Shown here piece after piece: positions 6,683 to 25,065 of a stretch of DNA of 64,000 nucleotides. A program made the translations under genes and the position numbers. This DNA comes from Leptolyngbyaceae cyanobacterium. Lineage in GTDB: Bacteria > Cyanobacteriota > Cyanobacteriia > Phormidesmidales > Phormidesmidaceae. Position 1 is the stretch's first letter. Each line of letters starts with the position of its first letter. The notes below the pieces were generated by a model. That model was not told where the DNA came from. It saw only the letters and a program-made list of their open reading frames with translations, and ran no database searches. The stretch is taken from contig CBDHHL010000032.1 in assembly GCA_965263355.1 (NCBI GenBank), forward strand, positions 2,592,001 to 2,656,000. The letters are read 5' to 3'.

Positions 6683-7324
6683 ATGACCCAAGCAGTTGAT
6701 TTAATACCCTCGTCGCCATCACCATTATCATTGCAAGATTTTCTTGTGTGGGATAGCGGTGATGATCGTCTATACGAATTAATTGAGGGTGAGCCGATGC
6801 CGATGAGCGATCCCACTGCTAATCATGAGGATGTGGCAGATAATCTTTGTGATCTTCTCAGGCTGCATTGTTTAGAAAAAAACTTGCCCTTCGTACCTAA
6901 GCGTTCCAAGTTAATCTCTATTGGTTCTCGGAATGGACGAGACACTGCTAGACGTGGCGATATTGTTGTTTTTGCAAAGGCTGAATGGGAACGGATGAAA
7001 GGGCTGTCTAGCTCAGCGATGGCTTATATTGCTCCGCCATTGGTCATTGAGGTGGTGTCAACAAACTGGCGAGATGATTATTTGACTAAGCTGGCTGAGT
7101 ATGAATCTATTGGTGTGCAAGAATATTGGATTGTTGACTATGGGGCGTTAGGAGGGATGCGGTATATCGGTCATCCGAAGCAATCTACATTGTCGATTTA
7201 TACTATGGACCCCGAGACAGGCGAATTTGGTATGCCACAACAGTTTCGCGGAGATAACAATATTAAGTCTACTGTTGTCCCTGAACTGGCAGTAACGGCC
7301 AAGACTTTATGGAAAGAAGATTAG
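6683..7324 (+). CDS. Uma2-family endonuclease
   Basis: YELIEG, PPLVIEVVSTNWRDDY, EYWIVD motifs. Confidence 0.9.
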   Translation: MTQAVDLIPSSPSPLSLQDFLVWDSGDDRLYELIEGEPMPMSDPTANHEDVADNLCDLLRLHCLEKNLPFVPKRSKLISIGSRNGRDTARRGDIVVFAKAEWERMKGLSSSAMAYIAPPLVIEVVSTNWRDDYLTKLAEYESIGVQEYWIVDYGALGGMRYIGHPKQSTLSIYTMDPETGEFGMPQQFRGDNNIKSTVVPELAVTAKTLWKED

Positions 7325-7563
7325 AGAGTACTGTCTTTTGGATGGAGGCCCCAGATGTTGGATACTCATCAGGGGATTGTGCGGGCGATCGCATCTCAGC
7401 CTGAGTCGTTTTTTTGTTGCTGCAGAAGATGGCCTGCTTGGTCTTTGAGATAAAGGCAGTCATCTTGTCCAGAGTCTTAATGAAGCTTGTCGATTAAAGA
7501 ATCTATGCAAGCCGTGAGAGGCTATAGAATCCAGCTATCCCCTCTTACACTTGGAGAAACGTT

Positions 7564-8610
7564 ATGAAGATTCTAGCGATTGACCTGGGCAAATTCAACT
7601 GTGTATCGTGTCTGCTGGACACGGAAAGTAACGCGAGTGAATTTGATACGTTTAAGACGTACCGACGGGAATTTAAAGAAATATTACATCGTACTCAACC
7701 CCACTTGGTAGTAGTGGAAACATGTTCGATTACCGGATGGGTGCATGATCTGTGTGTTGCTGAAGACTATCAAGTACTGGTGGCCGATCCGAGTCAGGAG
7801 GCGTGGCGTTGGAAAAACGTCAAACGCAAAACGGATAAAGACGATGCACTGAAGTTAGCAAAACTGGCGGCTCTCGAGCAGATCAACCCAGTGTACGTGC
7901 CTGCACCAGAGACTCGACAATATCGGCACTTGGTGAAGTATCGAAAAGTGGTGGTTTGGCGTATCAATCGGGTTCAAAATGCGATTCGTGCGTTGTTTGA
8001 TCAACACGGGGTGAAAATACCATCAGGTCACCGAGCCTGGACCATCCAGGGGATTGACGAATTAAGCCAACACCGCCGAGTGCTGGCGGAGTGCGATGAG
8101 CACAATCTATGGCGTGGGGAATTAGAGTTAGAATTAACGATGCTGGACCAACTATGGGAGCACCTGGCAACCATTGAACGGAAATTAGAAATACTCGCAA
8201 AGCAGGAGGAGCGCATCCAACTATTGCAGACCATTCCTGGGGTTGGTCGTAAAACAGCCGAAGTGATTGTCACTTGTTTGGATGATCCGAAGCGATTTGA
8301 AAATTCGCGGCAAGTGTGTGCCTATGCTGGATTAATACCCCAACAACATCAATCCGGACAAACCAATCGCTTGGGTAAGATTACTAAACGGGGACCAAGA
8401 TTACTCCGAACGGCATTAGTGGAAGTGTCCTGGCTGATGTTGCGTCACAACGAATGGGCGGCAGCTACTTATGCACGCATTAGTGGAGGACAGAAGACCC
8501 GCAAGAAAACAGCGATTGTAGCCGTTGCCCGGAAGTTGTTGGTGCGATGTTGGGCGATGTTGTTACACAACCAGCCGTGGAATCCAGAGTTAGCTCAGCC
8601 AACACCATAG
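7564..8610 (+). CDS. IS110-family DEDD transposase/recombinase
   Basis: AIDLGK, VVET, KTDKDDA, TIPGVG and YAGLIP..QSG motifs. Confidence 0.95.
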   Translation: MKILAIDLGKFNCVSCLLDTESNASEFDTFKTYRREFKEILHRTQPHLVVVETCSITGWVHDLCVAEDYQVLVADPSQEAWRWKNVKRKTDKDDALKLAKLAALEQINPVYVPAPETRQYRHLVKYRKVVVWRINRVQNAIRALFDQHGVKIPSGHRAWTIQGIDELSQHRRVLAECDEHNLWRGELELELTMLDQLWEHLATIERKLEILAKQEERIQLLQTIPGVGRKTAEVIVTCLDDPKRFENSRQVCAYAGLIPQQHQSGQTNRLGKITKRGPRLLRTALVEVSWLMLRHNEWAAATYARISGGQKTRKKTAIVAVARKLLVRCWAMLLHNQPWNPELAQPTP

Positions 8611-8976
8611 ATAACAAAATTTAGAAGAGAGATGGAGAGAACAAAGTGAGACTCTAGCATGAGCTTGAAGCTTCACGTAATCTGAAACAAGGTTGCCCTA
8701 ACGTTCGCGTAGCGTCTCCGTAGGAGTTATAAGCCATGCACCTTTGTAAAAACTCTTGAGACAATGCAATAGAACACACGTTCAAATAGCATTGACACCT
8801 CGGATAGTCGGTTAAATCCACTTTGCCCTCATTAATTCTCAATCAAAAAGACAGTCCTAAGAACAAAGGTAAATCATCTTGACTAACAACAAGATGAGAG
8901 ATTGATGTGGATAGAAAATGAGAGACTCTCCGAAAAAAATGCCGAAACCCACTTGACACGTTCACGGCTTCATAGT
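8611..8976 (+). ncRNA. Candidate bridge/seek RNA region of IS copy 1
   Basis: About 365-bp non-coding region after the transposase; guide-like loop at 8657-8739 containing AGCTTCACGT, the reverse complement of this copy's target; RNA ends unknown. Confidence 0.7.
8953..8976 (+). promoter_or_regulatory. Circle-junction promoter half (-35)
   Basis: TTGACA at 8953-8958 plus 17 nt, then T joined to the left end AGAAT gives TAGAAT only when the IS ends are fused. Confidence 0.75.
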
Positions 8977-9056
8977 CGTGAAGCTGAGCGGCGGCCAGGA
9001 ACTTTGGTATCATCATCTAAATTTTACCCTCCGTCTGTTCCTGCGCAGTGTTAGCT
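8977..9056 (-). repeat. attC site (interrupted by IS copy 1; remaining TTAA at 7494-7497)
   Basis: CGTGAAGCTGAGCGGCGG...TCCGTCTGTTCCTGCGCAGTGTTAGCT, same family as the other attCs. Confidence 0.8.
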
Positions 9057-9087
9057 GGTGTTCTCCACAAACCGTATCGTATTGATC

Positions 9088-9576
9088 TTAGGGCTCTTGG
9101 GCAAGGACTAAGATACGCTGATACAGCAGGGGACTGACACGAAAACCAGCTTGGTTGATCAAATCATCCATAATGGGTTGCACTTGGGGAATGAGGTTTC
9201 TTTGCTTGGCAACGAGCAAAATACCCAGAATACCGATTATGGATAGTCCAAGTTGAAGGGCTTGTTGCCGTCCCAAGCGCTCATCAATAAGCAGATCATC
9301 GGCTTGTAGCTCAAGTGCCAGCGCGATCGCACTCGCTTCTCCTGCATCCAGTCCTCGGTCTTGTTGTAATTGATTGGCAAGTTGAAGATTGCTAAGGGAT
9401 TGCGTTTGAATCCAGTCTAATTGCAGAATGCTTGAAATGGTTGGATTACTGGCGGTTGCGAGTTCGCTGGCAACAACGTCTGGAATAATTACGGTTTGGT
9501 AAATTGACTCTAGCAGCCAGAGATGATTGACAAGGGCAAGATTGCTGAGGGCAGAAGTATCGCTGACGACGATCAT
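9088..9576 (-). CDS. PIN-domain toxin (DUF3368-like)
   Basis: MIVVSDTS, LDAGEASAIALA, LLIDERLGR. Confidence 0.88.
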   Translation of the reverse strand: MIVVSDTSALSNLALVNHLWLLESIYQTVIIPDVVASELATASNPTISSILQLDWIQTQSLSNLQLANQLQQDRGLDAGEASAIALALELQADDLLIDERLGRQQALQLGLSIIGILGILLVAKQRNLIPQVQPIMDDLINQAGFRVSPLLYQRILVLAQEP

Positions 9577-9833
9577 AGCCAGCCCCGCTCGCGCAGGTGC
9601 TGAACATCTTGCTCAAGGTCTTCTACATCGTAGTGAACACAGATGCCCCGATCTGCCAGTAATTTCTGAAACGGGATGATTTCCATTCCAGCAATTTTGC
9701 TGGCGCGACTGAGGGAAATCAGCTCTTGTTGAAACAGTGCGATCGCAATTTCCCGAAACCAGTCGCTCTGATTAAAAGTTTCGGTTTGACTGAGATTATC
9801 AGGTAGGTTCAGAGTAATTTGCATAGGGTTCAC
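9573..9833 (-). CDS. UPF0175-family antitoxin
   Basis: AIALFQQELISLSRASKIAG...YDVEDLEQD; 4-bp overlap with the PIN gene. Confidence 0.85.
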   Translation of the reverse strand: MNPMQITLNLPDNLSQTETFNQSDWFREIAIALFQQELISLSRASKIAGMEIIPFQKLLADRGICVHYDVEDLEQDVQHLRERGWL

Positions 9834-9970: not shown

Positions 9971-10052
9971 AGCTAACGAGGAACTGAGCGGCGGGCAATA
10001 CTTTTGCCTCTACCTGGACTTTAAATCCGTCCGCTCCTTCACAGAGTTAGAC
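9971..10052 (-). repeat. attC site
   Basis: AGCTAAC...CTGAGCGGCGGG...TCCGTCCGCTCC...GTTAGAC imperfect palindrome. Confidence 0.85.
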
Positions 10053-10076
10053 GGCAAGAGCGATCGCACCTCGCCT

Positions 10077-10106
10077 GTAGGTTGGGTTGAGTTAGCGAAA
10101 CCCAAC
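10077..10106 (+). repeat. GTAG-type REP
   Basis: GTAG-GTTGGGTT-GAGTTAGCGA-AACCCAAC next to HIP1 at 10060. Confidence 0.85.
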
Positions 10107-10123
10107 AATATCAGAATATTCAC

Positions 10124-10669
10124 CTAATCCCAATCCATCTTTTCCATCATTTTAATTTCTCCACCAGCACCCCAATCACTCGGATAATACCCCCGCTCAA
10201 CATACCCATGAAAACTTGAATACGATCAATCGCAGCACGGAGAGTCAACTAACTGGTGACTGACCGGATTATAGTGAATATAGTCAACATGTCGTGAAAA
10301 ATCTTTTTCATCGCGAATCTGATGCTCCCAAAATCGACGCTGCCAGATAGCTTGTTCTTTTTTCGTCTGGCGGCTTGATGACCGTTGTCGCTTGTAATGT
10401 GCTGGGCAATGTCAGCTGAAATACGTCTTAATCAATCGCCAACGGGTGGAAAAATCGGCATCTCCGTCGGGCAAGGTCCAGATGCAATGTAGATGGTCGG
10501 GTAGTACCACAATTGCGTCAATATTAAACGGATGACGTTGTTTGACGGTGTGGAAGGCTTCGCGCAGTAGTTGAATCGTTTGCTCAGTTTTGAAGAGGTG
10601 CTGGCGGTTGTAGGTGACTACGGTGAAGAAGTAGGTTGCACCGGGTGTGGTGGCGCGGCGGTATTGCAT
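10124..10669 (-). pseudogene. REP-associated tyrosine transposase (RAYT), copy 1, two in-frame stops
   Basis: TYFFTVVT and PDHLH (HUH); frame continues past the TGA at 10412 with IWQRRFWEHQIRD...YIHYNPV; second TGA near 10226. Confidence 0.9.
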
Positions 10670-10731
10670 GGGGGTGGCCTATCGGGTGTAGGTTTAGGAT
10701 AGGCAGGATGAGGGCTAGGATAACTGTGGGT

Positions 10732-10760
10732 GTTGGGTTTCATGATTCAACCCAACCTAC
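10732..10760 (-). repeat. GTAG-type REP (inverted relative to 10077)
   Basis: Minus strand GTAGGTTGGGTTGAATCATGAAACCCAAC. Confidence 0.85.
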
Positions 10761-10798
10761 GGCGAGGTGCGATCGCTCTACGGCGAGGTGCGATCGCT

Positions 10799-10893
10799 CT
10801 GGTTAAACATTCCGAGGCTCACATCCCCTGAAAACTAACGGAAAGAGACAGTTGGGAGTCTCTTCGCCTCCTCTGAGCGATTTCGAGTCGCGC
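10799..10893 (-). mobile_element. 5' remnant of a group II intron
   Basis: About 95 nt clearly homologous to 24821-24916 (GCGCGACTCGAA...GAGACTCCCAA...CCTCGGAATGTT.AACCAG); follows GTTAGAC; truncated at HIP1 10790-10797. Confidence 0.85.
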
Positions 10894-10912
10894 GTCTAAC
10901 AATATATTAGGC
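10894..10912 (-). other. Short att-like simple site
   Basis: GCCTAA-TATATT-GTTAGAC on the minus strand, just downstream of the nuclease stop codon. Confidence 0.55.
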
Positions 10913-10930: not shown

Positions 10931-11836
10931 TCATATTAAACCAAGGACACGACGCACGGCATTATCCAAATCCTCGCCTGAAGGAAGATTTACTCCAGTT
11001 ATAAATCGACGGGAGAATTCTTCTAATTCAAACTTAATTTCTCTCGAAAGAACAAGATGACGTTGTGATCCATGCTGAACTGGCTCAGATAATGAGTAAG
11101 TATGAACTGTCAAAACATCTGGTGCATTGGTATTCACAAGGGGAATATCAGTGCCAATGACATTCTCAAATTTTCTGTATACGATGTCTGGGAGTAAAAA
11201 GTACAAACCGCTTTTGACCAAAGTCGACCTTGAGTAAATCAGTCCTTTGCGTATCAACTGTGGGATTAAACGTTTATGCACATTGGCCCAGTTCATACCA
11301 TGTCCAGATTTTGGAATTAGCGTATCTGATGAGGTTAAGTTTTTGTAAGCATACCAGTTGTCACGATAGTTTCCAGTGATGTCAATGCTTTGAACTTCAA
11401 TACCTACATACTCGATAAGCTCTCCGTTATCAACTTTAGCTAATACCCAGTCCATGGATAGGCTCGTTCCCAATTTGACTTCCCTGCCTGATGTTTGCCC
11501 CAGAGCAACAATACACTCTGCGACTTCATTTCGACGAGGAATATATTCTTCATAGGTTAGAAACTCAAAGCCATCTCCAAATGCATCATGTACGACTCTT
11601 CTCAAGGAAGCATATCGACTTTCATACATTCGGTTAGGACAAATTATGCAGTCTCCATAAGGGGACGTGACGCTGCATGTTCCATAGGTAATAGTTTGAT
11701 CGTGATTTGTCTTAGTGCATGCTTTTTCAATAAATGGACATGCTCCCAACTTCCATAAACTTCGACTCACATCAGATAAATCATCTGGTGCATATCCAAA
11801 GATCTCAACAATATCTTTTCTGGGCCTTTGCACCAT
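10931..11836 (-). CDS. NotI-family restriction endonuclease
   Basis: EIFGY, four-Cys pattern CPF..C..GTCSV..ICPNR, D...EVQ catalytic motif, RLIPQLIRKG. Confidence 0.8.
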   Translation of the reverse strand: MVQRPRKDIVEIFGYAPDDLSDVSRSLWKLGACPFIEKACTKTNHDQTITYGTCSVTSPYGDCIICPNRMYESRYASLRRVVHDAFGDGFEFLTYEEYIPRRNEVAECIVALGQTSGREVKLGTSLSMDWVLAKVDNGELIEYVGIEVQSIDITGNYRDNWYAYKNLTSSDTLIPKSGHGMNWANVHKRLIPQLIRKGLIYSRSTLVKSGLYFLLPDIVYRKFENVIGTDIPLVNTNAPDVLTVHTYSLSEPVQHGSQRHLVLSREIKFELEEFSRRFITGVNLPSGEDLDNAVRRVLGLI

Positions 11837-11839
11837 TTT

Positions 11840-13003
11840 CTAGTTACCTATCATGATTTTTATGGATTCTCCAATGGCCTTTGCCATCAGTGGTGGAACC
11901 GCATTACCAACCTGTTCATACTGTTGAGTGACGCTTCCTGTGAATTTGTAGTGATCTGGAAAGGATTGGATACGAGCTGCTTCACGCACTGAAATTACTC
12001 GATCCTGTTCTGGATGGAAAAAGCTACCCCAATGTGGATCACATTTTGTTAAAACAGTTGAGCATAAGGATTCAGGGTGTAGTCTTCCGTAGCGTTTAGT
12101 GTGGTCACTACGTCGTGCCCTTTTCATCCCAGCAGGTAAGAGTTCATAGGGAATATCACGCCAGCTTCCGCCTTGTGGAATATGTTTTAATCTTTCCAAA
12201 TTTACTTTTCCTAAATTTGCACAACTATGATTCCAGACTTGATGTGAATCATGGCGTAAGTGAGCTTGATATTCATTCTGAGGAGCTTTTGCATAATCCA
12301 GAGCTTCGTTTCTACTTCCACTCTCGATAGATGGCAAATCAGAAATAGCCTCCCATACGGTTGTGTGTTGCTTTAGGGTCGAAGCAAAAAGCGGAGGAAT
12401 GTCAAAACACAACTCTTTTGCTCCTGCAAAGTTTGCAATAGCTCTAGCATTATACGTAGGCTTTGGAAATTCGATTTCTTTAGTATGTTGTCTAATACCA
12501 ATAAATATCGTCCTGAAACGCATTTGTGGCACACCATAATGTCCAGCGAACAAAATGCGATGTTTAACAACGTATCCCAATGATTGAAGCACCTTATAAA
12601 TTTGTTCAACTACTGTGCCTTTGCCAAGTTGGACAATCCCCGTAACATTTTCAATTAAGATTGCTTTAGGCTTTAAGACGGCAACTACTCGAAGAAAGTC
12701 TTTAAATAGATGATTGCGTTCATCATCAAGGCTTCTTACAGGTGCATTTACTGAAAAACCTTGACAAGGTGGCCCCCCAGCCAATAGATCCAACTCACCA
12801 ACCTTAAGATTAAGCTTTTGCTTCAAATCTAGCTCAAATACCTGACGAACATCGCTAACGATAACTTTGACACTGGGATGATTTTTTTGGTATGTCTCTG
12901 CGTACTGACCCACTATTTCATTAGCCAATATGGCTTGGAAACCAGCCATTTCCAACCCACACGATAAACCACCTGCACCAGCGAATAAATCAATAAACTT
13001 CAC
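11840..13003 (-). CDS. DNA (cytosine-5)-methyltransferase
   Basis: DLFAGAGG, GGPPCQGFS, ENV, QMRFR and QVGNAVPP motifs. Confidence 0.95.
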   Translation of the reverse strand: MKFIDLFAGAGGLSCGLEMAGFQAILANEIVGQYAETYQKNHPSVKVIVSDVRQVFELDLKQKLNLKVGELDLLAGGPPCQGFSVNAPVRSLDDERNHLFKDFLRVVAVLKPKAILIENVTGIVQLGKGTVVEQIYKVLQSLGYVVKHRILFAGHYGVPQMRFRTIFIGIRQHTKEIEFPKPTYNARAIANFAGAKELCFDIPPLFASTLKQHTTVWEAISDLPSIESGSRNEALDYAKAPQNEYQAHLRHDSHQVWNHSCANLGKVNLERLKHIPQGGSWRDIPYELLPAGMKRARRSDHTKRYGRLHPESLCSTVLTKCDPHWGSFFHPEQDRVISVREAARIQSFPDHYKFTGSVTQQYEQVGNAVPPLMAKAIGESIKIMIGN

Positions 13004-13205: not shown

Positions 13206-13287
13206 GCCTAACTTTGAGCTGAGCGGCGGGCAATACTTTTGCCTCTACCTGGACTTTAAATCCGTCCGCTCCTTCACAGAGTTAGAC
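13206..13287 (-). repeat. attC site
   Basis: GCCTAAC...GCTGAGCGGCGGG...GTTAGAC; identical to 9984-10052 from CTGAGC onward. Confidence 0.85.
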
Positions 13288-13294
13288 GGCAAGA

Positions 13295-13406
13295 GCGATC
13301 GCACCTCGCCTGTAGGTTGGGTTGAGTTAGCGAAACCCAACAATATCAGAGCGATCGCACCTCGCCTGTAGGTTGGGTTGAGTTAGCGAAACCCAACAAT
13401 ATCAGA
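13295..13406 (+). repeat. Tandem duplication (56 bp) of a HIP1+REP unit
   Basis: GCGATCGCACCTCGCCTGTAGGTTGGGTTGAGTTAGCGAAACCCAACAATATCAGA twice. Confidence 0.9.
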
Positions 13407-13414
13407 ATATTCAC

Positions 13415-13957
13415 CTAATCCCAATCCATCTTTTCCATCATTTTAATTTCTCCACCAGCACCCCAATCACTCGGATAATACCCCCGCTCAACATACCCAT
13501 GAAAACTTGAATACGACCAATCGCACGGAGAGTCAACTAACTGGTGACTGACCGGATTATAGTGAATATAGTCAACATGTCGTGAAAAATCTTTTTCATC
13601 GCGAATCTGATGCTCCCAAAATCGACGCTGCCAGATAGCTTGTTCTTTTTTCGTCTGGCGGCTTGATGACCGTTGTCGCTTGTAATGTGCTGGGCAATGT
13701 CAGCTGAAATACGTCTTAATCAATCGCCAACGGGTGGAAAAATCGGCATCTCCGTCGGGCAAGGTCCAGATGCAATGTAGATGGTCGGGTAGTACCACAA
13801 TTGCGTCAATATTAAACGGATGACGTTGTTTGACGGTGTGGAAGGCTTCGCGCAGTAGTTGAATCGTTTGCTCAGTTTTGAAGAGGTGCTGGCGGTTGTA
13901 GGTGACTATGGTGAAGACGTAGGTTGCACCGGGTGTGGTGGCGCGGCGGTATTGCAT
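13415..13957 (-). pseudogene. RAYT copy 2, one in-frame stop
   Basis: Nearly identical to copy 1; same TGA at 13700; reads on to ...DWSYSSFHGYVERG...MDWD*. Confidence 0.9.
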
Positions 13958-14011
13958 GGGGGTGGCCTATCGGATGTAGGTTTAGGATAGGCAGGATGAG
14001 GGCTAGGATAA

Positions 14012-14120
14012 CTGTGGGTGTTGGGTTTCATGATTCAACCCAACCTACGGCGAGGTGCGATCGCTCTGTGGGTGTTGGGTTTCATGATTCAACCCAACCT
14101 ACGGCGAGGTGAGATCGCTC
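14012..14120 (-). repeat. Tandem duplication (54 bp) of a REP+HIP1 unit
   Basis: CTGTGGGTGTTGGGTTTCATGATTCAACCCAACCTACGGCGAGGTG(C/A)GATCGCT twice. Confidence 0.9.
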
Positions 14121-14144
14121 TCTAAAGATTGCTTAGAGTGCTCG

Positions 14145-14173
14145 TGTATCGCCGTTGCAACACAGTGTTAGCT
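14145..14173 (-). repeat. Partial attC (one arm)
   Basis: GCCGTTGCAACACAGTGTTAGCT just after a stop codon; the other arm is not recognisable. Confidence 0.5.
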
Positions 14174-14190: not shown

Positions 14191-14721
14191 CTATGCAGCT
14201 AGCAAGCGACTCATTTGCTCTTTCAGTAATGGAGATACCGTCAAAGGCTTGTATGTTTCACCTTCGTAAGGCTGCCAAACATAGCCTGAACTAAACGCTC
14301 TAAATAAAGATGGTGAACCAAGTAACTGCCAAGTACCCTCAGATAAAACCAATCCTGGTATATTCAGGGTAGATGACTCATTTGATAATTCGTCAAACGT
14401 CCTGAATTCATCAACTTCAAGGCCGACTAAGGCATAGCGAAAGGTAGGAGCAGACTGCAAATATTGATAAAGCAGAATACCTACCTCTGTCATTAAGTAA
14501 GCTGAGTCTGGCGTTTCAATGCCGATTGTGCTTATGCCATCAGGACATATCCGACACCACCAGTTTTCATCAATGTCTTGAAAAATAGTGGGACGGCATT
14601 GAGATTGAGAACCATTTGATAGCGACCATGAAACAGCCTCAAAATGTTGAGCGAATTGAGCTGCTGTGATCTGGTCTGAGCCACATTCCGCCGATAGACT
14701 AAATACCCATGCCATCATCAA
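14191..14721 (-). CDS. Hypothetical protein, putative antitoxin/immunity partner
   Basis: Acidic 176-aa ORF overlapping the upstream ART-like gene in the same cassette. Confidence 0.6.
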   Translation of the reverse strand: MMMAWVFSLSAECGSDQITAAQFAQHFEAVSWSLSNGSQSQCRPTIFQDIDENWWCRICPDGISTIGIETPDSAYLMTEVGILLYQYLQSAPTFRYALVGLEVDEFRTFDELSNESSTLNIPGLVLSEGTWQLLGSPSLFRAFSSGYVWQPYEGETYKPLTVSPLLKEQMSRLLAA

Positions 14722-15163
14722 TCACCTTTTGCCAATAGTTCTGAGTTTTTGCTAATGCTGCCTCATACCGCTCTAGTAGCATTGTAACCCTTGGCATAAT
14801 GCTGACATGGGTAGCGCTGTCTTGGATGGCTTCTAAATCACCATCAATATATTTGCTGTCAATTTGCCATAAGGGATCTCGACCGGTTCCTCCGAAAGCC
14901 TTGGGTTTCCGAAAAGGTGGCAACCCCTCAATAGATAGCGATGTGGACATGCCTTTTGTAGTTCTGATAGCGACTTCCACCTGTAACCCTGAATCATCTC
15001 GTTTCGCCTCAGGATGCAAATAACCTTGAGCATCGAGCCAACCTTGCAGCATATGAGACACATCAATATCTACTCCAGGTCTAATTCCTAGAAGACGAGC
15101 GCTACGACCTAATTTTGGTTTGCCATCCGCTGCTGCCATACCTCGATAGTAAAGCCGTGCCAT
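14699..15163 (-). CDS. Putative Tse2-like ADP-ribosyltransferase toxin
   Basis: YYRG, GMSTS and HVSIMP..M...Y...L pattern recalled from ART/Tse2-like toxins; not searched. Confidence 0.55.
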   Translation of the reverse strand: MARLYYRGMAAADGKPKLGRSARLLGIRPGVDIDVSHMLQGWLDAQGYLHPEAKRDDSGLQVEVAIRTTKGMSTSLSIEGLPPFRKPKAFGGTGRDPLWQIDSKYIDGDLEAIQDSATHVSIMPRVTMLLERYEAALAKTQNYWQKVIDDGMGI

Positions 15164-15255: not shown

Positions 15256-15340
15256 AGCTAACGAGTAGCTGAGCGGCGGTCGGTATTTCTGTTTCAGTGC
15301 CTGGATTATAAATTCCGTCCGCTCCTGCGCAGGGTTAGCT
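15256..15340 (-). repeat. attC site
   Basis: AGCTAAC GAGTA GCTGAGCGGCGG...CCGTCCGCTCCTGC GCAGG GTTAGCT, 8 nt from the stop at 15348. Confidence 0.88.
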
Positions 15341-15347
15341 GGCTACA

Positions 15348-15695
15348 TCAAATGTAAAGAATTTGGTTTTCCATTTCATCTGCTGTAGTGCTGTCGAGAA
15401 TTGTAAGTAATCTACGCACGATTTCTGTATAGGGCCTTCTAACTGCAATGATAATTCCAGAATGAGATTTATTTGTATTAAAGTACTCTTGGGCAAGACT
15501 TTCAAAGTCAGTGCGATTGTGCGTTAAGATGGCCGCTCCAAGGCTAGTTGCAAATTCTAATTGCTCTGCATCCGATTTCCTACGCTGTCCGGCTTGTGTT
15601 GTTGTCGTTGCATTGAAACCACGAGAACGCAAAAGATTTGAAATTAGAACGTCAACGTCTTCGTCCAAATAAACGTGAATAAAAATACCACTCAT
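15348..15695 (-). CDS. PIN-like toxin (DUF5615/VapC45-like)
   Basis: YLDEDV, SDAEQLEFA, ILTHNRTDF and HSGII motifs. Confidence 0.85.
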   Translation of the reverse strand: MSGIFIHVYLDEDVDVLISNLLRSRGFNATTTTQAGQRRKSDAEQLEFATSLGAAILTHNRTDFESLAQEYFNTNKSHSGIIIAVRRPYTEIVRRLLTILDSTTADEMENQILYI

Positions 15696-15699
15696 ACAG

Positions 15700-15981
15700 T
15701 CATAAGTTCCGCACTCGTGGGTCAATCAGCTCATCAGGAATACGATTTCGCTCAATGTATTCGTTGATTTCTGCTTGATGATCCAGATAATAGCTGAGTG
15801 CATCAAAAACCTGGGATAAACCGAGGTGTGGCAGTCTTTGGGGGATTTCCTCAGGTGAAACTCCAATACGCCACATTTTTACAATTGCTCTAACAGGCGT
15901 ACGAGTACCTTTAATAATAGGTTCACTGCTCAGTATTTCGTCATTTCTGACAATATGGCAGTGCTCTGTCGTTTGTACCAT
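15700..15981 (-). CDS. DUF433-family antitoxin
   Basis: PIIKGTRTPV...PHLGLSQVFDALSYY. Confidence 0.9.
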   Translation of the reverse strand: MVQTTEHCHIVRNDEILSSEPIIKGTRTPVRAIVKMWRIGVSPEEIPQRLPHLGLSQVFDALSYYLDHQAEINEYIERNRIPDELIDPRVRNL

Positions 15982-16586: not shown

Positions 16587-16703
16587 GAACCGCTCTTAAC
16601 AATGATAATCCGGTTCTCATAGCAAGTTGCCAGCTAAAGAATCTATGCAAGCCGTGAGAGGCTATAGAATCCAGCTATCCCCTCTTATACTTGGAGAAAC
16701 GTT

Positions 16704-17749
16704 ATGAAGATTCTAGCGATTGACCTGGGCAAAGTCAACTGTGTACGTGTCTGCTGGACACGGAAAGTAACGCGACTGAATTTGATACGTTTAAGACGTA
16801 CCGACGGGAATTTAAAGAAATATTACATCTTACTCAACCCCACTTGGTAGTAGTGGAAACATGTTCGATTACCGGATGGGTGCATGATCTGTGTGTTGCT
16901 GAAGACTATCAAGTACTGGTGGCCGATCCCAGTCAGGAGGCGTGGCGTTGGAAAAACGTCAAACGCAAAACGGATAAAGACGATGCACTGAAGTTAGCAA
17001 AACTGGCGGCTCTCGAGCAGATCAACCCAGTGTACGTGCCTGCACCAGAGACTCGACAATATCGGCACTTGGTGAAGTATCGAAAAGTGGTGGTTTGGCG
17101 TATCAATCGGGTTCAAAATGCGATTCGTGCGTTGTTTGATCAACACGGGGTGAAAATACCATCAGGTCACCGAGCCTGGACCATCCAGGGGATTGACGAA
17201 TTAAGCCAACACCGCCGAGTGCTGGCGGAGTGCGATGAGCACAATCTATGGCGTGGGGAATTAGAGTTAGAATTAACGATGCTGGACCAACTATGGGAGC
17301 ACCTGGCAACCATTGAACGGAAATTAGAAATACTCGCAAAGCAGGAGGAGCGCATCCAACTATTGCAGACCATTCCTGGGGTTGGTCGTAAAACAGCCGA
17401 AGTGATTGTCACTTGTTTGGATGATCCGAAGCGATTTGAAAATTCGCGGCAAGTGTGTGCCTATGCTGGATTAATACCCCAACAACATCAATCCGGACAA
17501 ACCAATCGCTTGGGTAAGATTACTAAACGGGGACCAAGATTACTCCGAACGGCATTAGTGGAAGTGTCCTGGCTGATGTTGCGTCACAACGAATGGGCGG
17601 CAGCTACTTATGCACGCATTAGTGGAGGACAGAAGACCCGCAAGAAAACAGCGATTGTAGCCGTTGCCCGGAAGTTGTTGGTGCGATGTTGGGCAATGTT
17701 GTTACACAACCAGCCGTGGAATCCAGAGTTAGCTCAGCCAACAACATAG
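16704..17749 (+). pseudogene. IS110 transposase, frameshifted near the 5' end
   Basis: TGTGTACGTG versus TGTGTATCGTG in copy 1 (1-bp deletion near 16745); the 301-aa ORF lacks the first catalytic Asp. Confidence 0.85.
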
Positions 17750-18093
17750 ATAACAATATCTAGAAGAGAGAATGAAGAGAACAAAGTGAGACTCTAGCAT
17801 GAGCTTGAAGCTCCACGTAATCTGAAACAAGGTTGCTCTAACGAATAAGCCATGCACCTTTGTAAAAACTCTTGAGACAATGCAGTAGAACACACGTTCA
17901 AATAGCATTGACACCTCGGATAGTCGGTTAAATCCACTTTGCCCTCATTAATTCTCAATCAAAAAGACAGTCCTAAGAACAAAGGTAAATCATCTTGACT
18001 AACAACAAGATGAGAGATTGATGTGGATAGAAAATGAGAGACTCTCCGAAAAAATATGCCGAAACCCACTTGACACGTTCACGGCTTCATAGT
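17750..18093 (+). ncRNA. Candidate bridge/seek RNA region of IS copy 2
   Basis: Uninterrupted guide-like loop at 17797-17855 with AGCTCCACGT and GCTCTAACG. Confidence 0.7.
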
Positions 18094-18172
18094 CGGGGAG
18101 CTGAGCGGCGGTCAATACTTTTGCATTGACGCCTAAATGGTAAATTCCGTCCGCTCCTGCGTAGGGTTAGGC
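18094..18172 (-). repeat. attC site (interrupted by IS copy 2; remaining AGCTAA at 16632-16637)
   Basis: CGGGGAGCTGAGCGGCGG...TCCGTCCGCTCCTGCGTAGGGTTAGGC. Confidence 0.85.
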
Positions 18173-20579: not shown

Positions 20580-20665
20580 GTCTAACGTTGCTGTTCAGCG
20601 GCTGGCAACAAAATATAACTCCTTCCAATAACTCATGTCAGTCCGCTGAAACAGACTTGTTAGGC
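20580..20665 (-). repeat. attC site (most canonical copy)
   Basis: GTCTAAC GTTGCT GTTCAGCGGCTGGCA...TGTCAGTCCGCTGAAAC AGACTT GTTAGGC; RYYYAAC/GTTRRRY ends and two unpaired bases in one arm. Confidence 0.92.
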
Positions 20666-22555: not shown

Positions 22556-24916
22556 GTCGGGTAAAGGGATAGGTTTTACATATAGCCTCCCCCCTCCCCT
22601 CAGAACCGTGCGTACAACTTTCACTGTACACGGCTCAAGCAACGTCGATAGCTCAGCGATGCATTTGTTGATGGCAGACTCGGTGGAGTGCCATCAGATT
22701 GGACGCATGATTCGTCCCACCTAGGTGACGTGGCTGCTTGTGATGAATGTGGATGGGCTCTCCATTGAATAGGGATTGCCCACACAATAGACATTGCCCT
22801 TGTTGCCAGCGGATAATCCGCTGAGCAGATTTGGGATAATCCCCCAGGTGCCTGGACTGTTTGCCCCGTAGAGCAAAATACCCCTGACACTCTGGGTCAT
22901 CTGGGCTAGCCTGCCCTCGAATGAGGACATGCCGTCGAATCCGGGTAGAGCCGATGCGATAAAGCACCATGCCTGTATTGGGGTCGATAAAACACCATCG
23001 GCACCCTGGATAAGCGGGATGCTCTCCCCAGTATCGTCCCTTTCGCCACGTATAGGACTTGTTGGGATGGGTTTTCGTTGCCCAGCGTTGGAGTTTCCAG
23101 AAGAGATAAGTTTCTAGTTTCTGGAAAACCTTTGAGCTGACCACGCCTCGATAGTAATTGGCCCATCCCCGCAAGATGGGGTTGAGCACCGTGATTACTG
23201 CCGTTGCATTACAGCCATGAAGCCGCTTAAACGTGTGCCGTAGTTTCTCACGAAATCTAGCCACACTTTGCTTGGCAGGTCTGATCAGCAGCTTCCACCC
23301 CGTCTGGGTGTTGCGGCTTGGGTAGTGACGAACCATGAACCCCAGAAAATCAAATCCTTCCGATAGATGCACCACCTGAGTTTTCTCATCAGATAGCTGC
23401 AGTCCTCTCAAGCTGAGGAAACGTTGAAGGTCGATTCGGGTTTGGTCTGCTTCTGCTTTGCTCTCACAAAAGACAACAAAGTCATCGGCATATCGCACCA
23501 CTGCCCGTGTTACATTCTTTTTGATATAGCCTTGGGCATATCGAGTAATGCCCAGTGCCGCTTCCATGCCATGTAGTGCAATATTCGCTAACAGCGGTGA
23601 GATGACACCACCTTGGGGCGTGCCAGCATCAGTCGAATGAAAGACGCCATCTTCTAGGTAGCCTGCCCTGAGCCAGTCGGCAATTAATCCACGAGCGGGA
23701 AAGTTACCAATCTGGCGGAGTAGGAACCGATGATTGATGGCGTCAAAACATCCAGCAATATCGGCATCGACCACCCACTTTTTGCGATTCTTTGCATGAG
23801 CATTGACATAGATACGAGCAATGGCATCATGGGCGCTGCGACCGGGTCTAAACCCATAACTGGTTGGCTCAAATTGAGCTTCCCAGCACGGTTCTAACGC
23901 CGCTTTGACCATCGCTTGTAAACATCGGTCCGTAATCGTGGGAATTCCCAAAGGACGACGTTTACCATTACTCTTCGGAATGTACACCCGTCTGACTGCC
24001 AAGGGTTTCCAAGGAATCGTTTGCTTCAGCTGATCCACTAGGGCTGCTTTAGCGGGGCCTGTTTTCACAAGCACCTTATCGATTCCTGGAGTGGCCTTGC
24101 CAGCGTTCAGTTGAGTCACCCGTCGTACCGCTAGCAGTACATTTGAGTAACTCTTGAGTAGTAATCGTTGGAGATTCCTGACTCGCTTCCAATCATGCTG
24201 TCGCGTCGCTCGGAAGATGCGTTGTCTCAGATTCTTCACCACTCGATGGGCTTTGCGCCAGTTGGCATCCTGCCAATCGGTGATGCGCTGGGTTACGTTT
24301 GCAACACAAGTCTGCACCTAACTTTTTCCTCAGCGTTTAGTCTCGTCTCAACGTCTCTTACTGGACCTCACCTGTCCCACGTCTGCGCCCTTTCGGGTTA
24401 GGCATTTGCCCTATCCGTCACGTTATGAATTCCGTTTGCCTTTCGGCGGACGGCTTTCGCGTCTTGGGACATCCTGTTCCCGCTAGAGACTTCGGCTTCC
24501 GTTACCGTCGGCTTACCTGAAAATGAAAATTCCCAGGACTCTATCGGGGTTTCCTCGTTCCGCACGGGGAGGAGATATGATTGCCTTAGGACTCCTCTGT
24601 ACTCCGGGAGCGGGGTGTTCTCAGTTGGTATTTAGACGCTACCAACTCCCATCTGCTCCAAAATTCTCGTATCAGCCATTTCGAGAACTCTAAATTAACG
24701 AAGCCTCATCAAGGATTCACTTGCGTTATCCTTAGCAATCTTGCCCTAGCCTGCACCCTCTTGTTGGCTCAGAAGATGCTTCGACAGTTAACCTCGTCTG
24801 CTGATGCTGCCCTCCCATTACTGGTTGAACATTCCGAGGCGGACATCCGCCTGAACACTGGCGGGGAGAGACGTTTGGGAGTCTCTCCAACTCCCCCGAA
24901 CGACTTCGAGTCGCGC
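22556..24916 (-). mobile_element. Group II intron (probably chloroplast-like/IIB class), full length
   Basis: 5' end GCGCGACTCG; domain V GAGCCGTGTACAGTGAAAGTTGTACGCACGGTTC (22603-22636); domain VI ending CCCGAC; RT ORF inside. Confidence 0.9.
22653..24317 (-). CDS. ltrA: Group II intron reverse transcriptase/maturase with HNH endonuclease
   Basis: RPLGIPT, GFRPGRS, GTPQGGVISPLLANI, YADD, GWANYY; C-terminal CLLC..HH..GG...NL..H..CH. Confidence 0.95.
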   Translation of the reverse strand: MQTCVANVTQRITDWQDANWRKAHRVVKNLRQRIFRATRQHDWKRVRNLQRLLLKSYSNVLLAVRRVTQLNAGKATPGIDKVLVKTGPAKAALVDQLKQTIPWKPLAVRRVYIPKSNGKRRPLGIPTITDRCLQAMVKAALEPCWEAQFEPTSYGFRPGRSAHDAIARIYVNAHAKNRKKWVVDADIAGCFDAINHRFLLRQIGNFPARGLIADWLRAGYLEDGVFHSTDAGTPQGGVISPLLANIALHGMEAALGITRYAQGYIKKNVTRAVVRYADDFVVFCESKAEADQTRIDLQRFLSLRGLQLSDEKTQVVHLSEGFDFLGFMVRHYPSRNTQTGWKLLIRPAKQSVARFREKLRHTFKRLHGCNATAVITVLNPILRGWANYYRGVVSSKVFQKLETYLFWKLQRWATKTHPNKSYTWRKGRYWGEHPAYPGCRWCFIDPNTGMVLYRIGSTRIRRHVLIRGQASPDDPECQGYFALRGKQSRHLGDYPKSAQRIIRWQQGQCLLCGQSLFNGEPIHIHHKQPRHLGGTNHASNLMALHRVCHQQMHR

Positions 24917-25065
24917 GCTAACTATGAGTTATCCAGACTTAGTCTGGATAAATACCTTCCAGCCGGAGTTATCCAGAAACTTTCTGGATAAACACCTTAT
25001 AAGCAATTAACCCAGAAACTTTCTGGATAATACCCCCAGAGTCGGAGTTATCCAGAAAGCTTTAA
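24917..25065 (-). repeat. Candidate attI-like head site with 3.5 copies of a 23-bp palindrome
   Basis: GGATAA-CTCATA-GTTAGC simple site plus TTATCCAGAAACTTTCTGGATAA-like units at 24929, 24969, 25008 and 25048 (half), period 39-40 bp; repeats seen directly, attI role inferred. Confidence 0.5.

Follow-up and report, generated by a model that had tools for sequence, protein, structure and literature searches.

A predicted target-binding loop aimed at attC sites in IS1111-type elements of a cyanobacterial cassette array

Insertion sequences of the IS1111 type are marked by sub-terminal inverted repeats with 7 and 3 nucleotides outside them, a DEDD transposase and a non-coding end downstream of it (PMC11187229). 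Among them, ISKpn4, ISPst6 and ISPa25 target attC sites; seekRNAs have been recovered for ISKpn4 and ISPst6, and one is predicted for ISPa25 (PMC11187229). In this IS1111-attC group the insertion point lies towards the 5′ (R''/L'') end of attC, at a distance of 9 bp from the GTTAG end (PMC13604230, PMC3001079). ISEc11 and ISXne4 form a published pair of naturally reprogrammed elements (PMC11187229), and genome-wide covariation between guides and targets underlies the work of PMC11208160.

Here we describe two IS1111-type elements within a 64,000-nucleotide stretch of DNA from a Leptolyngbyaceae cyanobacterium, referred to as the window. Since both the RNA-guided homing of IS1111 elements into attC and natural changes of guide are already published, the finding is a new example of a known behaviour; what sets it apart is the lineage, its landing point at the R' core, predicted cores that are not shared between target and donor, and relatives with two target loops. 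The elements also resemble group IIC-attC introns, which are likewise mobile, home into attC and lie antisense to the array, whereas those introns move by reverse splicing and occupy another position in attC (PMC3001079).

Two elements in the attC sites of a cassette array

Both elements (Table 1) carry the traits of the IS1111 type: a DEDD transposase of 330–350 aa with PF01548 and PF02371 (both above cut-off in copy 1), sub-terminal repeats of 11–13 bp with a 7-bp left and a 3-bp right extension, and a long non-coding region 3′ of the transposase gene. In copy 1 the repeats measure 13 and 12 nt and differ by one gap, with 7 nt and 3 nt outside them, and the non-coding end spans 366 nt (8611–8976). 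Copy 1 shows no target duplication and is oriented antisense to the cassette array; across relatives, too, the site and orientation are specific and target duplication is absent, with a few imprecise right junctions. The transposase genes of the two copies are 99.4% identical (1040/1046), and that of copy 2 is frameshifted by 1 bp near 16746. The one-base indels between the copies at 8632, 8939 and 16746, this frameshift included, may be assembly errors. On sequence grounds, the window elements are of the IS1111 type, with a 3′ non-coding end encoding a predicted target-binding loop aimed at attC.

Table 1 Coordinates of the two elements, their predicted RNA parts and the surrounding attC sites in the window
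Feature	Position	Strand	Remarks
IS1111-type element copy 1, 1479 bp	7498..8976	+	7-bp/3-bp extensions outside sub-terminal repeats
Left sub-terminal inverted repeat, copy 1	7505..7517	+	
DEDD transposase/recombinase, 348 aa, open frame	7564..8610	+	AID/VVE/KTD motifs, GL-P....SG loop
Predicted target-binding loop, copy 1	8657..8739	+	Outer stem, two guides, inner hairpin 8679-8694
First target guide (LTG equivalent)	8669..8678	+	Pairs with attC arm right of insertion (predicted)
Second target guide (RTG equivalent)	8695..8703	+	Last 5-6 nt match R' core side
24-nt small dispersed repeat, copy 1 only	8704..8727	+	Between second guide and handshake bases
Predicted donor-binding loop, copy 1	8748..8811	+	Degenerate left donor guide 8748-8756, hairpin, right donor guide 8804-8810
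-35 hexamer	8953..8958	+	Inferred promoter with TAGAAT on joined ends
Right sub-terminal inverted repeat, copy 1	8962..8973	+	
attC interrupted at R' crossover by copy 1	8977..9056	-	Last site found at this array end
Unoccupied attC	9973..10050	-	
Unoccupied attC	13208..13285	-	
Unoccupied attC	15258..15338	-	
IS1111-type element copy 2, 1456 bp	16638..18093	+	Transposase 16704-17749
Predicted target-binding loop, copy 2	17797..17855	+	Guides 17809-17818, 17835-17843; handshake bases 17844-17846
Predicted donor-binding loop, copy 2	17864..17927	+	
attC interrupted at R' crossover by copy 2	18094..18172	-	
Unoccupied attC, different subtype	20582..20663	-	

The nearest transposases, 92–94% identical, belong to Leptolyngbya sp. 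PCC 7375 and to metagenome-assembled genomes; when 401 genomes sampled from the phylum were searched by protein, PCC 7375 was the only one matched at E<=1e-80. At 57–59% identity the clade extends to filamentous cyanobacteria and metagenome contigs. Plasmid-borne named IS1111 members are only 25–36% identical, and the quick tree used to place the transposase holds few named references. The window contains 35 HIP1 octamers, consistent, like the nearest transposases, with a cyanobacterial origin. Rfam recognised no family over the element, its sole match in 6000–27000 being a group II intron, and viral contigs searched with one donor-loop pattern gave 0 matches.

Both copies interrupt an attC site at the same point, TAA|CG on the plus strand. 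Read on the minus strand, which is that of the cassettes, this is G|TT in the R' core, the IntI crossover. The attC cores, folded arms and upstream cassette genes are all present in the window, and R''/R' complementarity in neighbouring cassettes is consistent with attC. An integron integrase was recognised in none of the 14 window ORFs scanned. In PCC 7375, one that exceeds the TIGR02249 cut-off is located about 1.3 kb away from a copy of the element (L006), and intI genes above cut-off were found in four of the five host genomes tested.

The window lineage works much as the IS1111-attC group (ISKpn4, ISPst6, ISPa21, ISPa25) does, with a predicted 3′ non-coding RNA, target matches to the top and then the bottom strand, an attC target, an orientation antisense to cassettes and insertion immediately 5′ of CG without duplication. 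It differs in the landing point, which is the R' crossover at the 3′ end of attC, whereas the group uses the 5′ end (L''); insertion near the 5′ end was seen directly for an ISKpn4-like element on pKKp4-VIM (L137). The window transposase is 26% identical to the protein of that element and branches apart from it in a quick tree that carries a long-branch warning. Within the group, identity to ISPst6 is 76–89%, or 46–47% for the ISPa25 branch, and at 26% the window transposase lies outside the monophyletic ISPst6/ISPa21/ISKpn4 subset. Given the different landing point and this low identity, the lineage is not a member of the group despite its similar working.

Other features of the array were recorded alongside. 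A group II intron with an RT/maturase/HNH ORF (22556–24925) is flanked by GTTAG and CTAAC motifs, and a second 5′-end fragment (10827–10894) also adjoins CTAAC. A duplicated cassette (10057–10801 and 13348–14122) carries REP-like repeats and a short ORF that resembles a fragment of a REP-associated tyrosine transposase, and the attC near 14150–14172 is a half site only. A further cassette encodes a NotI-like endonuclease with a C5 methylase (10931–13003), and toxin-antitoxin-like pairs lie at 9088–9833 and 15348–15981. A Tse2-like ADP-ribosyltransferase ORF (14191–15163), overlapped downstream by an ORF with no Pfam family, is possibly a toxin-immunity cassette.

The target-binding loop and its guides

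The original prediction placed a target loop after each transposase gene, in which an outer stem encloses a 10-nt guide, an inner hairpin and a second segment complementary to the attC core. Its descriptions of the sequence are all correct, and the proposed stem, internal loop and hairpin are recovered in the minimum free energy fold of copy 2, in the centroid of copy 1, where they are not part of the minimum free energy fold, and by RNAalifold on 23 relatives. Over the alignment 94% of cells are paired and 11 of the 25 pairs show two-sided changes; none of 500 shuffles reached the observed value and slid controls gave 24–38%, a structural support that is weaker than it looks because the sequences fall in few related clades. 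A covariance model finds a single target loop in the window's own element.

The 10-mer of copy 1 has no mismatch to its own restored target and two to that of copy 2, while the 10-mer of copy 2 has one mismatch to each, as had been claimed. When the 366-nt non-coding end was shuffled 20000 times, an exact 10-mer match to either strand appeared 13 times, so the match is not due to chance. The last 5–6 nt of the second segment match the R' core side, again in agreement with the prediction. When the layout is mapped onto IS621 (PMC11208160, PMC13626964, 10.1101/2025.05.14.653916), taking the window minus strand as 'top', the first guide comprises seven target bases and the CG core, and the second guide covers the core and 3–4 further bases. 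With a probability of roughly 80%, we read 8657–8739 as the target-binding loop within an IS1111-type bridge/seek RNA that is predicted to have two loops.

Copy 1 differs from copy 2 in carrying a 24-nt insert that follows a CG directly after the second guide. The same insert is found in three relatives (L007, L015, L045), so such copies have still moved or have been moved in trans. We take the repeat to resemble the SDR elements known from cyanobacteria (Elhai et al. 2008), and in other cyanobacterial genomes it lies in unrelated contexts at 8 of the 13 loci checked. According to PMC5861425, SDR elements were reported in Nostocaceae only.

Whether the 10-nt segment acts as a guide was judged on relatives drawn from GTDB genomes (21 loci), metagenomes (31 loci), handle and order searches, and plasmids. 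Target loops were parsed in 35 loci, of which 31 have a right flank (L093, L045, L098 and L100, which have none, were dropped); the flank of L006 was taken from behind its 18-bp tandem duplication. Target positions +3 to +10 were scored, with the best of two registers and two loops used for observed and null values alike, and the permutation test drew one random member per guide group (16 groups, 31 insertions) in 200 draws of 2000. First guides match their own targets at 5.81 of 8 positions, against 3.04 ± 0.39 for permuted targets, a score that no permutation reached (p<0.0005). Matches of 8/8 occur in four unrelated guides (L066, L097, L113, L136). A later pattern search of 401 genomes matched 12 and yielded eight new loci, five of them with a readable loop and flank, which score 7, 7, 6, 5 and 4 of 8. 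The guide-target covariation called for by the original prediction thus holds on homologous copies over 16 guide groups, and the permutation test together with the five later loci makes the assignment of the 10-nt segment as an RNA guide very likely.

In most rows the second guide agrees with the final 3–5 bases of the left flank, and it varies together with that flank in the Acaryochloris loci L112 and L113 and in L182. As in seekRNAs and bridge RNAs, then, two guide segments match both target strands and covary with targets. In three later loci (L181, L182, L188) the target is displaced by 7 bp to the outside of the attC R' core; both guides differ correspondingly, and the scores are 6–7/8. 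The pairing register in the window clade is offset by 1 nt from that of most relatives. Some copies match their own guides poorly (L003 1/8, L072 2/8, L112 3/8, and L009, L069 and L183 4/8), which calls for movement in trans, for insertion on half a match or for rearrangement after insertion; the L003 flank resembles an internally deleted attC. The elements L112 and L113, on Acaryochloris plasmids, sit in another transposase gene and not in attC, and L112 looks like a recombinant with the right half of L113, the right flank being common to both. A variant second guide ending in AAGAGCG occurs in L013, L102, L106 and L176, and it mismatches the TAA left flank where that flank is known (L013, L102).

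Guide letters that change with their targets recall the pairs ISEc11/ISXne4 and ISEc21/ISMch6 (PMC11187229), here between clades. Those pairs are 72% identical, whereas the window copies are 99% identical in the transposase gene and their one-letter difference is not upheld as re-targeting. The original prediction had noted that a T>C difference between the two first guides mirrors an A>G difference between their targets, and had proposed a guide naturally re-tuned to each copy's own attC. The correspondence is true of the two window copies. Among 15 close copies, however, the base opposite the T allele is A in three, G in five and T in one, and that opposite the C allele is G in five and A in one, so that letter and target are not associated over the 14 A/G rows (Fisher p=0.58; p=0.56 once the doubtful L003 is removed). 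The counts do lean in the predicted direction, with C on G in 5/6 copies, and a weak real effect of the letter may be present at n=14. Four copies in PCC 7375 share one identical C guide at four different targets, both alleles are found in lineages whose transposase genes are about 90% identical to those of the window copies, all four combinations of allele and 24-nt insert exist, and G is the base at that position in two of the three unoccupied attC sites of the same subtype. The second guide differs between the copies as well (8697 C versus 17837 T), and the left flanks do not mirror this; a covariation of this C/T difference with the left flank was considered and rejected, none being seen.

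What speaks for a recent reprogramming within one genome is, in addition, that the differences between the copies cluster near the loop, with 7 of 17 events in 8611–8739 (129 of 1478 nt, p=0.0003; 6 of 14 without 1-nt indels). The differences are patchy, with none in 7792–8555, which suggests mosaic exchange or gene conversion and not fresh point mutation. Contigs from three runs of a closely related organism show an extra A at 8631 and at 8932. Copy 2 is also one base longer at both sites, and the two indels could thus stem from errors in the consensus. Two runs each have a contig that stops at 8672, as the presence of two alleles at 8673 could produce. We regard tuning of each guide to its own site as improbable. 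The likely account is that the T/C letter is a standing polymorphism within ordinary family variation: U pairs with A or wobbles on G, C prefers G, and G is common, so that the observed allele pattern is the expected one, and the same wobble, with identical guides at different sites, leaves the re-tuned guide unsupported. The different loops of the two copies probably reflect old divergence or patchwise recombination and not adaptation to the own site.

The four intact unoccupied attC sites have 2–5 mismatches to either guide, in keeping with the earlier statement of at least two. Mismatch count does not explain why they are empty, because relatives occupy sites with as many: at least two misses at pairable positions occur in 5 of the 15 close copies (L003, L005, L009, L017, L078).

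The donor loop, the junctions and a proposed mechanism

The donor-binding loop, which the first reading of the sequence could not locate with confidence, is probably 8748–8811. Its right donor guide is identical to the right junction at 7/7 positions and nearly invariant over 23 relatives in these 7 nt, and its fifth base tracks the terminal base of the element in three end types (AGT, AGC, AGA). The left donor guide matches at 6/9 positions only. The bases after the second target guide (AAT) match the left end of the element, with 8/9 against the left junction. Joining the ends gives a predicted promoter, TTGACA-17-TAGAAT, with 17-bp spacing. A circle junction taking one base per flank fits the left donor guide better by eye, and was rejected because it breaks the 7+3 rule, given the ATG-defined repeats, and loses the 17-bp promoter. 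Contigs assembled from four runs over 7250–9250 contained no circle or empty-site joint, a result that cannot show absence.

This predicted arrangement is like that of the IS621/IS622 (ISCro4) bridge RNAs in its two internal loops, its 7+2-nt left target guide, its handshake bases after the right guide and its junction promoter, the last being predicted here. In contrast to those elements, the RNA lies in the right end and long sub-terminal repeats are present, and the nearest solved structures are distant (E 1e-17, 1e-14). The predicted cores are CG in the target and CT in the donor (AG on the plus strand), whereas IS621 uses CT in both; a dinucleotide common to target and donor at both junctions, as in IS621, is not found.

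The junctions fit this unshared core. The left junction reads AG in 39 of 39 distinct cases and in all 5 later ones. Three of the 40 distinct right junctions come from a distant group; the other 37 comprise 34 CG (3 of these without the terminal T), 2 AG and 1 TA. A few ends escaped the junction pattern used, among them two that read TG (L046, L060). Imprecise right junctions in L009, L015, L028, L182, L183 and L006 show a missing terminal T, short duplications or an 18-bp tandem duplication. AG on the left with CG on the right is the product expected when the top strand alone is exchanged 3′ of the core. If both strands were exchanged with a 2-nt stagger, CG should appear at about half of the left junctions. 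Models of top-strand exchange that agree with this pattern have been put forward (10.1101/2025.10.25.684509, 10.64898/2026.08.31.748434). We give top-strand-only exchange about even odds, because a blunt crossover would explain the same data and the absence of duplication in IS1111 had already been noted (PMC11187229).

By likeness to IS621 and ISKpn4, circle formation, a joined-end promoter and RNA binding to the DEDD transposase are proposed. The element would be excised as a circle whose joined ends create a promoter, and the RNA would be bound by the DEDD transposase. Pairing of the first guide would take in 7–8 nt of the attC arm together with the crossover CG, and the second guide would pair on the R' core side. 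The bases following the second guide, like those at the end of the right donor guide, would pair with partner DNA only once the strands have been exchanged, and this handshake pairing would drive insertion at G|TT, destroying that core site. One tolerant guide would thereby serve a family of attC variants.

Two other accounts bear on parts of this scheme. Because attC sites fold as hairpins, the choice of site might depend mainly on the folded single-stranded hairpin or on contacts with the protein, with the RNA match secondary. Some insertions do match their guides poorly, and sequence as well as structure is reportedly required by ISPpu10, according to a 2026 preprint. Against this, guides change with targets even at the non-attC site of the Acaryochloris locus L113 (8/8) and at the 7-bp-shifted site (L181, L182), and the second guide ends in a G that pairs with the duplex partner strand, where the opposite hairpin arm has G, T or A; we hold this account to be very improbable. 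It is less remote, though still unlikely, that only the short target loop acts as a seekRNA, the second hairpin serving processing or structure and the ends being read by protein through the sub-terminal repeats. An 82-nt seekRNA alone supported movement of ISEc11 (PMC11187229), and the left donor guide is degenerate in the window element, but changes in the right donor guide go along with changes in the right end over the three end types, and its 7 nt vary little among 23 relatives. A seekRNA-only system concerns the donor loop alone and is compatible with the target-loop part of the two-loop reading that we prefer.

Tandem target loops and implications

A sister clade carries two tandem target loops in its 3′ non-coding ends, at seven loci (L097, L098, L099, L100, L102/L134, L103, L106/L125). 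Its transposases are 64–70% identical to that of the window, the loops lie about 105–125 nt apart, and their first guides differ. The covariance model recovers both loops in five of the seven, and the six loci placed in the tree form one clade (SH-aLRT 99, in a quick tree). The hosts hold attC-like sites of two subtypes, starting with GTTGCC or with GTTCCC/GTTCCG, which fit the two guides in part in G004, G218 and G226; as raw counts, the attC-subtype pattern gave 22 matches versus 6 for a control in five genomes. A search for tandem target loops in the main text of publications, including passages of 10.64898/2026.10.21.760802 and 10.64898/2026.08.14.744561, found nothing relevant.

Taken further, the lineage might be a 'core-less', multiplexable bridge recombinase that joins a CT donor to a CG target through the top strand only and re-targets by swapping target-loop modules, the duplicated loop of the sub-clade giving one RNA with two guides for two host attC subtypes. 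We offer this tentatively, at somewhat less than even odds. If exchange is confined to the top strand, every genomic junction would record the strand used. Since the predicted donor and target cores differ, the junctions are a natural strand marker, and junction sequencing could test the current dispute between two-strand exchange and top-strand copy-out/paste-in. The two-loop relatives would offer bridge RNAs that naturally hold two guides, and with them a lead towards multiplexed insertion into genomes. For integrons, these elements would represent a second, unrelated lineage that parasitises them at the IntI crossover itself, and such an insertion should lock the cassette in place.
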